A DNA stretch of 6,199 nt from assembly GCA_905178155.1 (NCBI GenBank), contig CAJINV010000022.1, forward strand, positions 633,473 through 639,671, given 5' to 3'. The DNA comes from Amoebophrya sp. A120. Lineage: Eukaryota; Protista; Dinoflagellata. A program made the position numbers and the translations under genes. Below the pieces are notes generated by a model. It was not told where the DNA came from and searched no databases. It saw only the letters and a program-made list of their open reading frames with translations. Numbering within the stretch: the first letter of the stretch is position 1; each line of letters starts with the position of its first letter. Below, piece by piece: positions 413 through 6,199 of the stretch.

Positions 413-3400
413 ATGAAGCACGCACTGGCATCTCGGGTGCTCCTGCTTTTCTGGAGCACCAAATCTGTCCTGGTCGCCGCATCGGCCTCCAGCGACTCGT
501 CGCACACCAGAATCACTATGCGTTGCAAACGTACTTATCGTACTCGTAGAAATGCATCACAAATTTCGATTTCCTCAGCAGGAGAAACAAAATTTGTTCA
601 AATGCGAATTTAGCTTAAGAACAAGACTTGTAATGCATAACTGCAAGTACTACGAGTAGGTACGATACTTTTGCGCAGGATAATCCCCGACGGGCAGCAG
701 CAGGTGACCAACCCTCAAACGGCGCAGGAGTCTCTTGCGGGAGCTGGTGCAGCCGAATCTCCCAAAGCTACCGACGATGTGGTCCTTGAACCCGACAGCA
801 GTAGTACTTTTTTGACACCCAGCACGAGCGGCGCAGAAGGTGCCCTGCCAGAGTACGCCTGGGACCGGGTTTATTCGTTCTTGGCCGGCAATGGGGTCGC
901 GTCGGGCTCCTTCGATCAAAAAGCCTATGCTTTGCAAACATGTCTGGGTCTGGAAACTTGTGATGCTGGGTGGCGTATCATGAGGAGGCCGCGAGTCCTG
1001 GCTCAGCATGACAAGTTTTTGAGCTTCTAGATGTTGGCTCTTCTGCATGACAAACTGCGTTTCTGCATGACAGAAAAATGGGGCTCTTGGGTAAAGTGCA
1101 TGACAGATTTAAGAGTCATGCCAGACAAGCATGACAAACATGCACTTTTCCATACCCAGACAACATATTTGCGCTTGATAAAGCCGACCGCAAAGCAACT
1201 GTGGAAAACCTCGAAAGCCACCACGCAAAGACCAAGCAGGCGGCTGTGGTGGCGGCCGACCCGGGCACAATCCGTCCGGCGGTTTCTCAGAAGTGGCTCC
1301 AAGCTGCGGAAATCGTGCGCGCTGCTGGCCACAGTGGCGATAGTGGTACAGTAGGAAGCCAATCTGCCCTTACCGATGCTCATCTTGGCACCGCGACGAG
1401 AGACACCATGCTGCAAAAAGTTCTGAAGCGGAAACACCGTCTAGGCCCAGAGGGGACTGACGCAACCTCAAGCCTTGCTGCCGCAAGCAAGGCGAGTCGG
1501 AAGTTTGTGGAAAAAAAGACGAAGAATTATTTGCAAAACTGGTACAATAAAGCGACTGCCGGCATCGACAGAGCCCCTGGTCATTATCCTTTCATCGCAA
1601 AGGGACTGTTTTCTTGCACGGTGGAAGACTTTTATGACCTGCTTGCCGAGGCTATCCTGAGTAAAAACGTACCCACACCAGAGTCAAGATGGGGAGTTTG
1701 CAACACAAACCTAGGAGTTTTGTGAGTCACGCATGACAAGTTGCACTATGCAGTGTAGTGCAGGTCGGCAAGTGCAGCCGCATCACAGATTCATCTGCTC
1801 ATCCTGTTCACAGCATCACAAATTCCAAAACACGATTGGAAATGGCTCTCATGGGGATGCGCATTACAAGTCTTCCTGTCTTTGCAAATCTGCATTACAA
1901 CTCTGGTGTGGGTACGTTTTTACTCAGGATAGAGGCTCCGGACGACGAGATCGCGCACGCAGTGATGATCCACGGCGACGTCATGCCGAGCTGGCTTTCT
2001 GCGAACATTTTGCGCGAAAAGCTCCGGCCGCTCATCCAAGGAGCGCGCGAGCGTGGAGGTGGGACCGGTGGCCCCCGCCTGGAGGGTCACGGGGCAGGAA
2101 CGGCGACCGAAAGCCCCCCGACAAGCGCTGCTGGAATCACCCTTCCACACGGTGGCAGCCTGAGTGCGCAGGGCGAGTCCTTCATTGCTGTGCACAACGA
2201 CGTATGGGCAGATGACGGATTACATGGGCCAGACATGAGCGCAACCTCCCGGGCCCGCTTTCTGGAGCAAGTCGTGCGAGAGGATAATCCAAGTGCGTAC
2301 TACCCGAGGTTGTTTGTTTCGAACCCCGATTATGACCCTGACGTTCTTGTTCGTGGTCGCAGCCGCCGGACGGGCGATCGCATCACGTTGCGGCATATCA
2401 AATGCAACTATGTCTGGGTGTGGAAGATTGCCAGGTTTGTCATGCATATTTTGCATGACGCATGATGCCTGTAGTGCATGACTTAGCATCACAGATTTTT
2501 GGAAGGCATCCTAATGCCTATTCCGCATGGCAAATGCCCTCTCCGCGTAGCACAATCTGGGCTCCTCTTCCTGGTCATAGCACTACAGATCTTTTGAGAA
2601 TCCAAAGACAGCATTACAAGTTTGGATCCACCTTCCAGACCCAGACATTTTTGCGATGCATATGGCACAAGAAAAAATTTCAGGGGCGGTACGCCTACAG
2701 CGACGGTGGAGTTCATTCTACCTCGAGCATATTCTGAGAAAAAATCCCCCCTCCCCATACTACTCAAAACGGAAATTTGTGATGCTGATTTGTGACCACA
2801 AATCAGCTTCGTCTTGCATATGAGGCATCAAATGGGAGCCGTATCCCGCACTCGACAGCAAATCTGTCATGCGCTTTTACCTACCGCGCACCTGTCTGTC
2901 ATGCCGAGCTGCTAGCCTTTTGCATACTCAATCAGGCTTGAAAAATTATGCCTTCACGCTCTTGCCGCAATTATACACAGCTGATTTGTGTACAGAAATC
3001 CAGCATGGGGTGGGGGTTTTTTCATATTTCCTTTTTTGAATGGGGTGGGGGTTTTTTCATATTGATAGAGCAGTGGCTCCGATACCCTGCGTTACACTAC
3101 GGACTTCGACGCCACACGGGATATGGGGGTGTCAGGATTGAGATCGTCAAAGTTGAAATAGTTTGTCATGCATAAAATCGATACCAGTTGGAAGCCCAAT
3201 TTTCAAGCGGCGCATGACAAATTTAGGCACCGTCGAAATCCGGTCTGTCATGCTGTTTAGGGACAGAAGGCGTCTTTTGTCGTGCTACTTTACCAGCCCT
3301 ACCGCAGACCTCAAACAGGCTGACTGTCGGCCTCATTTGCCATCCCTGCAAGACAGGTACGTCATGCCTTGCATTTTATGCATGACAAATCATTTCAACT

Positions 3401-3588
3401 TTGTCGATTTCAAACCTGACGCTTCCATACGGGATCTCCTGAACGTTACCGCCGAGGAAGTCCATTTTGTCATCGTAGAGTCGCCGACGGTCATGACGCA
3501 TATTCGCTGCAAGCCGAAGAAAAATTGGGAATGCAAGCTGCAGATTTGTCAGCACAGCAGCAACGACCCTTTCTCGTCTCAGGGGTAA
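413..3588 (+). CDS. Gene 1: reconstructed 7-exon, 510-aa hypothetical protein, probably secreted. Exons 413-516, 688-925, 1186-1652, 1937-2395, 2668-2729, 3073-3121, 3435-3588; boundaries can slide within the 5-bp repeats.
   Basis: Removing six TIR elements plus one repeat copy each gives 1533 nt with no internal stop, from ATG 413 (context aaaaacaATG) to TAA 3586-3588. Junctions read SHTRI(T/P)DGQQ, FDQKADRKATVE, DLLAEAPDDEIA, RITLRHKKKFQG, HSTSSSGSDTLR and DATRDLLNVTAE. This joins parts of track ORFs 389-613, 671-1030, 1201-1725, 1758-2465, 2462-2737 and 3163-3588. The N-terminus MKHALASRVLLLFWSTKSVLVAASA looks like a signal peptide by eye. No family recognised with confidence. Confidence 0.85.
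517..682. mobile_element. Element E1 (166 bp): degenerate TIR element / putative non-canonical intron 1 of gene 1
   Basis: Left end TATGCGTTGCAAAC...TACTCGTAG versus reverse complement of right end TATCCTGCGCAAAA...TACTCGTAG (about 22/33 matches). Flanks ATCAC (512-516) and ATCCC (683-687). Contains an in-frame TAG at 611-613, and removing 171 nt keeps the frame. Confidence 0.72.
926..1180. mobile_element. Element E2 (255 bp), family A: putative non-canonical intron 2 of gene 1
   Basis: TIR core TGTCTGGGTCTGGAA (941-955) / TTCCATACCCAGACA (1148-1162). Perfect repeat AAGCC at 921-925 and 1181-1185. About 87% identical to the reverse complement of E7. Removing 260 nt restores the frame. Confidence 0.9.
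1653..1931. mobile_element. Element E3 (279 bp) with a perfect 32-bp TIR: putative non-canonical intron 3 of gene 1
   Basis: TATCCTGAGTAAAAACGTACCCACACCAGAGT (1653-1684) is the exact reverse complement of 1900-1931. Perfect repeat GAGGC at 1648-1652 and 1932-1936. Removing 284 nt restores the frame. Confidence 0.93.
2396..2662. mobile_element. Element E4 (267 bp), diverged family A: putative non-canonical intron 4 of gene 1
   Basis: TIR core ATGTCTGGGTGTGGAAG (2410-2426) / CTTCCAGACCCAGACAT (2632-2648). Flanks CGGCA (2391-2395) and TGGCA (2663-2667). The right end TTCCAGACCCAGACATTTTTGC is identical to that of E7. Removing 272 nt restores the frame. Confidence 0.88.
2730..3067. mobile_element. 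Element E5 (338 bp), family B: putative non-canonical intron 5 of gene 1
   Basis: TIR core GAAAAAATCCCCCCTCCCCAT / ATGGGGTGGGGGTTTTTTC. Perfect repeat GAGCA at 2725-2729 and 3068-3072. The interior is collinear with the reverse complement of E8. Removing 343 nt restores the frame. Confidence 0.88.
3005..3063 (+). repeat. Exact 24-bp direct duplication of the inner right TIR of E5
   Basis: ATGGGGTGGGGGTTTTTTCATATT occurs at 3005-3028 and 3040-3063. Confidence 0.9.
3122..3429. mobile_element. Element E6 (308 bp) with a ~57-bp imperfect TIR: putative non-canonical intron 6 of gene 1
   Basis: 3122-3178 (TATGGGGGTGTCAGGATTGAGATCGTCAAAGTTGAAATAGTTTGTCATGCATAAAAT) pairs without gaps with 3373-3429 (reverse complement TATGGAAGCGTCAGGTTTGAAATCGACAAAGTTGAAATGATTTGTCATGCATAAAAT). 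Perfect repeat CGGGA at 3117-3121 and 3430-3434. Removing 313 nt restores the frame. Confidence 0.92.
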
Positions 3589-4847
3589 GGCGGTCCACCT
3601 GACATTGGTACCTTTTTTGGTGCGCCGAACTTTTGGACTTTGACAGCATAACATTCTTATGCAGTTCGGCGTGGTCAGACTGAATAGAGATCCAGCTCCT
3701 GCTGCGCCATGATATCACTTGTGATGTCTGCTGCTGCTAATGACCTCTGTTTGGCGGCCTTATCTTTCCGGAAAAGATATGGTCGAAGCTAGGATATTTC
3801 ACATGCACTTACACACTGCTTTTTCTATACGATTTTTTACCGCAGAATGCCTTATTCTTTGGTCGTGTCCTGTCGTGATCGTTCATATACAATTTTTTTT
3901 ACCGCAACTCTGAGGAAGCCAGTTCTTGCTTCTATCATCAAGGCCGGGGCACAGGGGAAAGGTTTCGACAAAAGACCATTAGCCTTCAACAACTAGGAAG
4001 AACTTTATCATCACTTTGATTTTAAAGCGCTATTGCAAAAGATTTTGATTCAGGGTCGTGCGCGCAAGCGCAGCGCGCAGCTTATTTTATTTTTGTGCAG
4101 TCCATTCTACAACAACGTTAGATGACACATCAGTAGGCTACACTGCTGATAAATTTCAGCCAGGAACAAATAGTGCCGCCGACGTTCGTCTTCTCGCTAG
4201 AACTTATGCGCCACTATCTTTTTGACCACTGCCGCTAGCCACGCTTTGATACGCACTGGGCCGACGACCATCTGGGTATGCCATGTTGTGCTGGATCTAC
4301 AGTTCCCGCAGGTGGCGCGGTGCTTGGTCGACCTCGATCCTGTTCGCGTCAAGTAGTACAAGTCCTGGTATTCCTTCGGGGGACAAAGCAACCCCGAGCG
4401 AGAGCTCGACGAGATCATTTCTTCGATTGATATCGCCATCACCGAACTGTAGGAAAATACGCAGATCTGTCATTGTCGTTTTGCGATAAGTTTTCGCGAG
4501 ATGTCAGTCAAGGGTGGACCTGCAGTGAAGATCACTGTTTCAACGAATTGCTTTTGTGTGATGAGACATTTCTTTTGCAAATATAGAATTTAACACCCCA
4601 GAAATGCCAGCCTTTTAGTTTTATGCACCTTTTTGAGGCAAATATCGCGGTCGTCTTCTACTTAGTTCATTTCTTATTTCTTACCTCACATAAGTGCCAG
4701 CACCGGCTTCTTTCCTTAAATATTTTGTCCATATTTTTCTCGTGCGATTTCACTAAGCGCAGAACAAGGTTTGTTCTGTCATCAGTACGCGCCGCGCTCT
4801 ACTTGCCGCAACTTCAACATCTCTAGCTGTAATATACGGATAGAATT

Positions 4848-6199
4848 ATGGTCGCCTTTTTGAAGAAAAAGATGCTCGGGTCAATGTTGGGCCCATGCAT
4901 GATCTTATTCAGCGCAGGAGCCCCTCGCTTCGCGCTGGCTGCCGCGCCAGGAGCAGCACCTTCTGGAGGTCGTGATATTTTTGCAGGAACCGGCCTAGAA
5001 GATACAGGCGCGCTTGAGGTTGTCGGGCGCAGGAGGCTATCAAGTGCAAAAATGTCTGGGTCGGGAAGAATGCAAGTTTGTCATGCTTGTCTCACATGAC
5101 TTTTGAATTTGTCATGCACATTACCCAAGAGCCCCATTTTTCTGTCATGCAGAAACGCAGTTTGTCATGCGGAATAGGCAACACCTAGAAGCTCAGGAAC
5201 TTGTCATGCTGAGCCAGCACCTGTGGCCTCCTCATGATACGCCACCCAGCATCACAAGTTTCCAGACCCAGACATTTTTGCATTTGGTAGAGGCCGGCGC
5301 CGGCCGCTGGCGAAGATGGTGGTCGCCCAACGAGATTTCTGCGCCGGACTTTTCCTTATCGTAAGGAAAAATCCCCCCTCCCCATATCAAAACGATGTTT
5401 CTGATGCTTGATTTGCGTACACAAATTAGATTTGTCTTGCTGGCGAGGACTGCAGGCCCATATCAAGCCTGAGTAGACAGGTTTGGGCCTAGGCGCTTAG
5501 CATGACAGACGTCTACGCTGTAGGAGCAACAGCATGACAAACCGCCTGTAGAATGTGGCGGAGCCTGTAGATTTGCCTTCATGCAATACAGCGACGATTT
5601 GTGGTCTCAAATCAGCATCACAAATTTTCAGGAGTGTCCCGGTTTGGTATGGGGAGGGGGGATTTTTCCTCACAATATTCCTGATCAGCATGCTAGTAGC
5701 GGGTCCAGCTTTTTATCCGACAGAAAAGTACGGACTTATGTTTACCTCAACACTGGAAAATCATTTATTGTGTTTGTCATGCAATTTTCAGCATCACAAA
5801 AAAATTCCTGTTGTCTGTTCAACATGGCAAGCTTTTTCGGTACATATCGTTATCCTCCCCATGCACATCGTGCATCACAAATGCGAATTCCGTTGTGCGG
5901 GGCGAAAAAGTATCGGCAAAATAGTTGTCTCTGCAAAGCAGAATTTTTAGCGGCACAAATTTTTGTTGAGCAAAACAAGTCACAAAACACAGATTTAGAT
6001 ATGTTTTTTTGCTGCCATGGCGATGGCCGTACTTTTCTGAATGATAATCTTCGACGACGCAGCCAGAGATCGGAATTGTGAATCCCAACAACCTGTGCTG
6101 GATGATCAGCTTGTCGCAGAGTTTGGTCTACATTCCGTCCCTGCACGAGGAAGCCGCGGCGGTGTGCGCGCGAAGAGATGAGGAGCAGCGATTGCTAGG
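4848..6199 (+). CDS. Gene 2 (3' end beyond window): ubiquitin-specific protease (USP, peptidase C19)-like protein with a signal-peptide-like N-terminus. Exons 4848-5037, 5295-5356, 5683-5713, 6052->6199.
   Basis: Removing three elements gives MVAFLKKKMLGSMLGPCMILFSAGAPRFALAAAP...VVGRRRPAPAAGEDGGRPTRFLRRTFPDQHASSGSSFSTTQPEIGIVNPNNLCWMISLSQSLVYIPSLHEE..., open to the window edge. GIVNPNNLCWMISLSQSLVYIP (6072-6137) fits the USP Cys box GLxNxGNTCYMNSxLQxLxxxP, with Cys at 6096-6098 and Asn five residues upstream. In unspliced DNA this frame is closed by TAA 6045-6047, with no ATG before the Cys. The His box is not in the window. The start could be ATG 4848, 4872 or 4884. Confidence 0.8.
5038..5289. 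mobile_element. Element E7 (252 bp), family A, inverted relative to E2: putative non-canonical intron 1 of gene 2
   Basis: Left TATCAAGTGCAAAAATGTCTGGGTCGGGAA versus reverse complement of right TACCAAATGCAAAAATGTCTGGGTCTGGAA (27/30). Perfect repeat GAGGC at 5033-5037 and 5290-5294. Removing 257 nt keeps the frame open. Confidence 0.92.
5357..5677. mobile_element. Element E8 (321 bp), family B, inverted relative to E5: putative non-canonical intron 2 of gene 2
   Basis: Left TATCGTAAGGAAAAATCCCCCCTCCCCATA versus reverse complement of right TATTGTGAGGAAAAATCCCCCCTCCCCATA (28/30). Perfect repeat TTCCT at 5352-5356 and 5678-5682. Removing 326 nt keeps the frame open. Confidence 0.92.
5714..6046. 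mobile_element. Element E9 (333 bp): putative non-canonical intron 3 of gene 2
   Basis: Left TATCCGACAGAAAAGTACGG versus reverse complement of right TATCATTCAGAAAAGTACGG (17/20). Degenerate flanks CTTTT (5709-5713) and ATCTT (6047-6051). Removing 338 nt joins the upstream exons in frame to the USP Cys box. Confidence 0.85.

Follow-up and report, generated by a model that had tools for sequence, protein, structure and literature searches.

Transposon-like introner elements in two genes of Amoebophrya sp. A120: evidence for exact removal with one copy of a 5-bp repeat

Two genes in a 6,199-nt stretch of Amoebophrya sp. A120 DNA (in the following, the window) are interrupted by nine short inserts, which are almost certainly introner elements of the A120 type and which, as judged from homologous proteins, are removed as the element plus one copy of a flanking 5-bp repeat. 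Removal very probably takes place on RNA, a level that is taken from the literature, and we lean cautiously towards the whole explanation, namely that the introners were inserted by a transposase or integrase and leave the pre-mRNA by splicing, along with one repeat copy, through a reading of their paired ends and not of GT-AG. The intron class is already published, while the fixed 5-bp duplication, the random orientation, the chance rate of GT-AG and the palindromic target preference described below are details that were not found in the published texts and supplements cited here.

The original prediction had assigned the inserts to a probably described class of Amoebophrya introns, and this assignment was right, as the A120 introner ends reported by Farhat et al. 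(2021; PMC7789003) read TAT-N7-AAA, a motif present at 15 of the 18 element ends in the window (motif scan, with TAC allowed at E7), and the exons have matches among the annotated proteins of Amoebophrya sp. A120. The sequence after TAT deviates from the motif at the left end of E4 and at both ends of E6. With the published introners the window elements share inverted ends of at least 8-20 nt (TAT, seven freer bases and at least three A), direct repeats 3-5 nt long at the boundaries, non-canonical, non-GT-AG boundaries, repeated families with related copies at unrelated sites, a size near 240 nt, hairpin potential and a position in genes annotated in A120 or a close relative (PMC7789003). In contrast to the repeats of 3-5 nt and variable position described there, the duplication found here has a fixed length of 5 bp and lies just outside TAT...ATA; a 5-bp example is given in the legend of Fig. 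S19 of PMC7789003. Orientation, a distal target motif and retention of the 5' copy, all described here, were not found in the text of that paper. The inserts also have the properties of MITEs or non-autonomous TIR transposons, being short and non-coding, with inverted repeats, a duplication of fixed length and free sequence, and either orientation, while the GT/GC...AG ends, polar branch point and pyrimidine tract of U2-type introns were not found in them.

Table 1. Elements and host genes of the window (positions count from its first nucleotide).
Feature	Positions	Strand	Description
Gene 1	413..3588	+	exons (5' repeat copy kept) 413-516, 688-925, 1186-1652, 1937-2395, 2668-2729, 3073-3121, 3435-3588; 3' end uncertain
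E1	517-682	.	166 nt; flanking 5-mers 4/5; removal 171 nt; belongs to a family that has 32 members among the clustered elements
E2	926-1180	.	255 nt; perfect 5-bp repeat; removal 260 nt; 89% identity to E7, inverted
E3	1653-1931	.	279 nt; perfect repeat; terminal inverted repeat 30/30; removal 284 nt; GC-AG at register 3
E4	2396-2662	.	267 nt; repeat 4/5; removal 272 nt; joined form in P0008 has the 5' copy (Arg, not Trp)
E5	2730-3067	.	338 nt; perfect repeat; removal 343 nt; 67% similarity to E8, inverted; not in P0008
E6	3122-3429	.	308 nt; perfect repeat; removal 313 nt
Gene 2, 5' part	4848..6199	+	exons 4848-5037, 5295-5356, 5683-5713, 6052-window end
E7	5038-5289	.	252 nt; TAT...GTA; perfect repeat; removal 257 nt; relative of E2, inverted; GC-AG at register 3
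E8	5357-5677	.	321 nt; perfect repeat; removal 326 nt
E9	5714-6046	.	333 nt; repeat 3/5; removal 338 nt; paralog model P0007 has it removed, P0005 reads into it

All nine elements with terminal inverted repeats are present as predicted (Table 1), a recount of the flanking 5-bp repeats again gave six perfect, two with 4/5 and one with 3/5 matches, the recomputed removal lengths were identical, and the in-frame stop ascribed to the 171-nt removal sits at 611-613. The claim that all ends read TAT...ATA holds for eight elements but not for E7, and the absence of GT-AG in any register holds for all nine, GC-AG however being possible in E3 and E7. Under a strict filter (TAY..RTA ends, a repeat of at least 4/5 and a terminal repeat score of at least 6), 8/9 elements pass, E9 failing through its repeat, compared with none in 100 shuffles. 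Eight elements have relatives among the fetched loci, with up to 92% identity, and none was found there for E9. In all nine elements, pairing of the two ends is predicted whichever way the element lies. An Rfam search of the window returned one sub-threshold match only, in the intergenic region, and a scan of viral contigs with the element pattern found none.

Gene 1 encodes a product of 510 aa with a hydrophobic N-terminus and is multi-copy in A120; the annotated protein P0001 is identical to it over aa 1-423 and matches 498/510 residues overall. Pfam gave no family for the gene 1 exons or for P0001 and P0003, and a search at the level of 50% clusters gave only four relatives. Gene 2 is a USP/UCH-type deubiquitinase, also with a hydrophobic N-terminus, whose paralog P0007 matches UCH with E=1.3e-19. 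It had been predicted that one rule, the removal of the element plus one repeat copy, restores open frames at all nine junctions, which is true, but the support is weaker than presented, as stops alone force just 3/9: in gene 1, 18 of 729 frame combinations stay open (junctions 1-3 are forced, 4-6 are not), and in gene 2, 6 of 27. An open frame constrains the removal length modulo 3 only. The missing support is therefore supplied by homologous proteins, and here the exactness of removal stands, since annotated A120 paralogs agree with the rule at 9/9 junctions. For gene 1, comparison with P0001 and P0003 gives +5 nt as best or tied-best at 6/6 junctions, above +2 or +8, and P0007 matches gene 2 across junctions 7-9. 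In addition, P0008, an unnamed 99-aa fragment that is 100% identical to the window's own copy of gene 1, reads across junctions 4 and 5 in joined form. The homologous proteins retain the 5' copy wherever the repeat is imperfect, namely at E1, E4 and E9. Use of nearby GT-AG sites is disfavoured: alternatives that keep the frame are available for all nine elements, but they alter 1-11 residues, contrary to the homologs. Removal of the element plus 2 nt (one base beyond each end, adding one codon), suggested by the NT-AN pairs in Table S4 of Farhat et al., was rejected given the same best fit of P0001 and P0003 at +5 and the lack of an extra residue in P0008. The pairs of Table S4 and the splice-site counts of PMC12130899 fit a mixture of two mirror registers, which we read as aligner bias and not as the true cut.

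The annotated proteins stem from paralogous loci, and the A120 gene models rest on transcript alignments with the longest ORF picked, a choice that could favour rare skipped forms. Hairpins with direct repeats are the usual substrate for template switching, and it is conceivable, although improbable, that the joined forms are reverse-transcriptase skips over such hairpins and that the mRNAs keep the inserts or the gene copies are dead. The evidence from A120, as published, is based on cDNA with models chosen by longest ORF, and one paralog model, P0005, runs into the equivalent of E9. However, in a wider set of 298 elements, for which 135 of 138 loci come from one metagenome assembly, elements lie inside CCT-beta, DAGAT, ABC and SNF2 genes, the exons of which stay open and homologous; in the CCT-beta chaperonin gene the element lies within the conserved TIVLRGA stretch, between human residues 376 and 379. 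If retained, 160 of 163 elements would bring in an in-frame stop, and removal lengths are spread evenly modulo 3 (102/102/94), hence there is no selection for read-through.

The removal rule recurs throughout the wider set. A perfect direct repeat of 5 bp was found in 113 of 147 relatives (other lengths, 0-13), and 49 of 51 informative flank pairs require element+2 modulo 3, after exclusion from the 298 elements of 131 that were too short, 114 that were uncertain and two with strand conflicts. Junctions are open and coding-like at +5 in 169/279 cases, compared with 30-44 at other lengths. Most of 148 exon pieces submitted to Pfam (159 listed, from 164 confident junctions) had no family, and no long coding element that could represent an autonomous transposase was found in the 138 short loci.

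Precise DNA excision in expressing nuclei, as for the internal eliminated sequences of ciliates, which leave as an element plus one pointer repeat, would fit the geometry (one repeat copy kept, blindness to orientation, transposon ends), and P0008 could derive from DNA. We nevertheless consider it highly improbable, as the elements are in place in two DNA assemblies (in the window and at 135 metagenome loci), the bias on the sense strand at position 5 of the repeat (see below) is hard to explain at the DNA level, and we know of no germline/soma nuclear split in Amoebophrya. Splicing, by contrast, is favoured by the 66,565 RNA-seq-supported introns of A120, of which >60% are non-canonical (PMC7789003). 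The words "excision" and "empty" are absent from the main text of that paper, which suggests that its authors did not test DNA excision.

Insertion shows a palindromic preference at a distance of 12-15 bp from the centre of the target, with T-N-G-T at -15 to -12 and A-C-N-A at +12 to +15 (p=1e-54 and 2e-36; 288/298 sites), each side being detected separately. This distal motif largely explains the strong codon-phase bias of the elements, as it implies phase counts of 33/53/77 against 32/40/91 observed (residual p=0.05), and it does so without any splice-site requirement. Hopping of ribosomes over retained elements, with a whole codon within the 5-nt repeat serving as matched take-off and landing sites, might be read from the middle three repeat bases, which form one codon in 91 of 163 coding junctions, and from mismatches that lean synonymous. 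However, the phase bias comes largely from the distal motif, 6/10 non-synonymous mismatches lie inside the whole codon of the repeat, and hops of 170-340 nt, six per gene, are to our knowledge far beyond known cases; the probability of hopping is negligible and it was rejected.

Within host genes, the orientation of the elements is random: counts by family are 41/45, 23/31, 16/16, 9/13, 9/5 and 7/3, and nearest neighbours share orientation in 87 pairs and oppose each other in 93. An orientation bias in a first, smaller count (19 vs 44, p=0.002) was gone after fuller clustering. The logos of the 5' and 3' ends are indistinguishable. These observations bear on the alternative that the same elements are removed by a relaxed U2-type spliceosome without a recognisable U1, in which the terminal stem aligns the ends and N-UAU acts as a degenerate 5' splice site, an explanation that is possible but rather doubtful. 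A120 retains nearly all spliceosomal proteins as well as U2, U4, U5 and U6, and 35% of its introns are GT-AG, while no U1 snRNA was found (PMC7789003), and Fritillaria offers a precedent. Moreover, the repeat base adjoining the 5' TAT has a sense-strand bias (C 38 and G 91 of 248, p=0.0002) that persists after correction for codon position (p=0.0006), without such polarity at the mirror position. Against this stand the random orientation, the lack of any strand skew inside the elements that would mark a branch point or pyrimidine tract, and the occurrence of C at the 5' TAT-adjacent base in 4/9 window elements. Furthermore, no AG or GT enrichment was found in any register among 164 relatives, unlike in the Polarella elements, which function in both orientations but with GT/GC/GA-AG; GT-AG was possible in 9/164 (6.4 expected, thus at chance rate) and GC-AG in 1/164.

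Mismatches between repeat copies bear on the register. Synonymous changes make up 16 of 26, compared with 0.40-0.44 expected if one copy is discarded (p 0.02-0.05; p 0.1-0.2 after adding the four mismatches of the window), an excess that hints at a sliding register. Selection on RNA pairing was not significant over all G-U versus A-C mismatches (155 vs 137, p=0.32; 66 vs 65 per element), while the coding subset gave 110 vs 81 (p=0.04). End positions 4-7 are complementary in just 35-78% of elements.

The nonconventional introns of Euglena, as described in PMC12501133 and PMC11282704, share with the elements the lack of GT-AG, inverted pairing ends, junction repeats, a proposed MITE origin and a 3' spacer longer than the 5' one. 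However, they belong to an unrelated lineage, their core is CAG...CTG and a purine begins the following exon, and their removal as circles and their sequence rule come from experiment; with TAT...ATA in place of the N3-CDG...CHG-N5-6 signature, the window elements appear to work alike without being members. Introners of Polarella and Aureococcus (bioRxiv 10.1101/2020.10.14.339549; PMC9860276) likewise have a reported DNA-transposon origin, duplications and inverted repeats, some bidirectional classes, and a phase bias from the insertion-site sequence. They carry or recruit GT/GC/GA-AG, so that their duplications are constrained, while the duplication in the window is free and the phase bias arises from bases 12-15 bp away. 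Fritillaria borealis introns are described as MITE-derived, with inverted repeats and duplications, and mostly non-GT-AG (PMC11282704), but have dominant AG-AC/AG-AT ends and an altered spliceosome, in contrast to the window-type elements, which have no dominant dinucleotide pair. In A120 itself, introner family 38 has Copia/Gypsy-like ORFs inside inverted repeats, while the window elements are non-coding (PMC12130899). Family 38 is a candidate source of an integrase-type enzyme. Integrases of this type commonly leave a duplication of 5 bp.

Strong signatures suggest that a symmetric DNA transposase or integrase would bind the TAT-N7-AAA ends, prefer the distal T-N-G-T/A-C-N-A, cut with a 5-nt stagger and insert in either orientation. 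After transcription, the same two end boxes would lie on the RNA in either orientation, with ends predicted to pair, and the element plus 5 nt would leave so that the pre-insertion sequence is restored, the length following homologous proteins and the RNA level the literature. The 5' cut might fall at TAT or one base before it and the 3' cut 4-5 nt downstream of ATA, a placement beside TAT by which the 5' repeat copy would stay. The candidate enzyme for this step is a dedicated, end-directed pathway like that of the Euglena nonconventional introns, and not U1/branch-point recognition; we put the existence of such a pathway at about an even chance. Only tentatively can it be proposed that this Amoebophrya lineage possesses a second splicing system, blind to orientation, which reads the two end boxes of a transposon on the RNA and takes out the element with one target duplication at any junction sequence.

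The puzzle is one of scale, with tens of thousands of introns lacking usable splice dinucleotides in a cell for which no U1 snRNA was found. With the duplication fixed at 5 nt, the seeming disorder of the boundary dinucleotides comes down to ambiguity of register. The random orientation of the elements speaks against intron recognition of the usual polar kind. Imperfect repeats offer ready sites at which existing reads could locate the true cut, and the distal target motif provides a fingerprint for tracing the missing transposase. Dedicated end-directed splicing, if it exists, would amount to an enzyme system new to RNA processing, with possible use as a tool. Should the second splicing system be real, any insertion by one DNA integrase would be harmless in coding sequence, and this lineage would hold a matched insert-and-erase pair: an integrase whose target choice depends on bases 12-15 bp away from the cut, and an RNA splicing activity that is programmable and sequence-free.

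The original prediction was confirmed for all nine inserts of the window (E1–E9, at junctions 1–9), for the 5-mers that flank them and for the length removed with each, and eight of the inserts pass a strict element filter that none of 100 shuffles passed. The TAT...ATA ends ascribed to all nine hold for eight, but element 7 ends in GTA; likewise no register, i.e., cut position within the repeat, gives GT-AG, as had been stated, but GC-AG is possible in one register at elements 3 and 7. When every element is taken out together with a single copy of its repeat (element+5), frames do stay open at 9/9 junctions, yet stop codons force junctions 1–3 only, because gene 1 is open in 18/729 and gene 2 in 6/27 frame combinations, and frame evidence sets the removal length only modulo 3. 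E2 and E7, which sit in two genes of the same strand, are 89% identical in inverted orientation. The window elements match the introner elements of A120, an already known class, on each feature tested; these are described as having inverted repeats of TAT, seven freer bases and then at least three A, and direct repeats of 3–5 nt (Farhat et al., 2021; PMC7789003).

Coordinates of the features discussed (window positions unless a locus is named)
Feature	Position	Strand	Remark
Gene 1	413-3588	+	E1–E6; ATG at 413
Gene-1 stop region	3585-3590		stop codon within a GTAAG donor-like motif
Lone end-like motifs, intergenic	4031-4644		right ends at 4585 and 4644
Gene 2	4848-6199	+	E7–E9; ATG at 4848
Span in fetched locus L048	2987-4017		1031 nt

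Reconstructed by element+5 removal, gene 1 encodes a 510-aa protein and gene 2 an open frame up to the window end, and searches with the exons led to annotated proteins of Amoebophrya sp. A120, whose gene models are based on transcript alignments with the longest ORF chosen. The paralog P0001 (CAD7973304.1) aligns with reconstructed gene 1 without gaps, every residue agreeing from 1 to 423 and 498/510 over the full length; against it and a second paralog, P0003, element+5 scores best at 6/6 gene-1 junctions, and with the more distant homolog P0002, +8 is tied or preferred at junctions 1, 2 and 6. Most telling for exact removal is P0008, an unnamed 99-aa fragment of RNA or DNA origin: it is 100% identical to this gene-1 copy, including residues that distinguish it from paralogs, and it crosses junctions 4 and 5 and lacks both elements. 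Past element 4, identity to P0001 falls from 100%, which suggests that tandem paralogs underwent gene conversion or recombination, the breakpoint lying within this element or close to it. The stop codon in the donor-like motif and the differing C-terminal ends of P0001 and P0003 make an extra ordinary intron in gene 1 possible.

For gene 2, the homolog P0007 (569 aa; UCH domain, E=1.3e-19) agrees over junctions 7–9 with one unrelated difference, and P0005 agrees at the first two of these, then runs on into element 9. Gene 2, which is multi-copy in A120, codes for a deubiquitinase of the USP type whose N-terminus is hydrophobic and signal-like, and which the parasite could secrete; both the Cys and the His box are present in the paralog P0007.

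An end pattern from E2, E4 and E7 retrieved at least 138 loci, at least 135 of them from one assembly, whose elements reach 92% identity to those of the window. Among 147 family members picked by inner motif alone, 113 have a perfect 5-bp repeat on their flanks and 22 more a 4-of-5 match, other lengths reaching 0–13. A general element finder gave 298 elements with removal lengths even modulo 3 (102/102/94); element+2 modulo 3 is needed in 49 of the 51 with confidently framed flanks, and junctions are open and coding-like in 169/279 cases at +5 and in 30–44 at other removal lengths. One element interrupts a CCT-beta chaperonin gene within a conserved segment and another a DAGAT gene, the two sides being contiguous on the model in each case. 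It follows that the sequence present before insertion has to be restored, by whatever route. A 10-nt internal motif, GCAT-S-ACAAA, recurs across element families in the window and the fetched loci (4.0 per kb within elements vs 0.6 outside; 203/298 elements) and is a candidate protein-binding site. The span in L048 has ends that match and carries the 5-bp repeat of a 262-nt element sharing its left end, and is possibly a tandem or composite element. The intergenic end-like motifs, for which neither a partner nor similarity to fetched elements was found, are perhaps decayed elements.

Empty sites, reconstructed for 288/298 elements, reveal a target motif, counted from the centre, of T -15, G -13 and T -12 on one side and A, C and A in mirror position on the other (p=1e-54, 2e-36, 3e-10), present on each side separately. 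It is common to three end types and weak in a fourth (n=18); the window sites match 14/36 of its positions (p=0.05). This distal motif largely accounts for the codon-phase bias, by which the repeat begins on a third codon position at 91/163 coding junctions: fitted weights imply phases of 33/53/77 vs 32/40/91 observed (residual p=0.05). The palindromic preference and 5-nt stagger point to an enzyme of symmetric action, a DNA transposase or integrase. At the three imperfect window repeats (E1, E4, E9), homologous proteins retain the 5' copy, with minimum registers of at least 4, 1 and 3, respectively, the evidence coming from this very gene copy for E4 only. On the sense strand, C is rare at the base preceding the 5' TAT (38/248, p=0.0002), although 4/9 window elements have it there. 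Repeat mismatches are synonymous in 16/26 (p 0.02–0.05; 0.1–0.2 once the window's four are added), which argues against a fixed register, and the 5'-cut register is regarded as a lead only.

Conventional signals are scarce: GT-AG is available in any register at 9/164 coding junctions vs 6.4 expected, and GC-AG at 1/164. Both orientations occur (41/45, 23/31, 16/16, 9/13, 9/5 and 7/3 by family; an earlier count on a subset gave 19 vs 44), nearest neighbours sharing orientation in 87 cases and opposing in 93. Comparison of 5' and 3' end logos revealed no difference, and element interiors no strand skew. In the literature searched, including the PMC7789003 text and supplement, no statement on element orientation, the distal target motif or the repeat copy kept was found; its Figures 3, 4 and S19–S25, 37/58 A120 rows and files 13–14 of the PMC12130899 supplement, and subscription papers fell outside and may hold some. 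PMC7789003 reports 66,565 introns with RNA-seq support, >60% of them non-canonical, and no U1 snRNA found in A120; it leaves the removal mechanism open, and the later papers, as far as covered, repeat this account without a solution. Removal by a relaxed spliceosome without U1 is possible, if doubtful; a reverse-transcriptase artefact or dead genes is an improbable explanation, excision of the elements from DNA a very improbable one, and ribosome hopping across the elements is scarcely credible. End pairing is predicted for both orientations (z -3.7 for E2, -6.0 for E7), but comparing G-U with A-C mismatches did not clearly indicate that RNA pairing is under selection. Positions 4–7 often differ between the two ends of one element in the fetched loci, TAT and AAA being kept, and the ends look more like a two-part end signal than a perfect stem. 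Over all rivals, we favour, at about even confidence, RNA splicing through a dedicated pathway, which paired end boxes would direct, as in Euglena.
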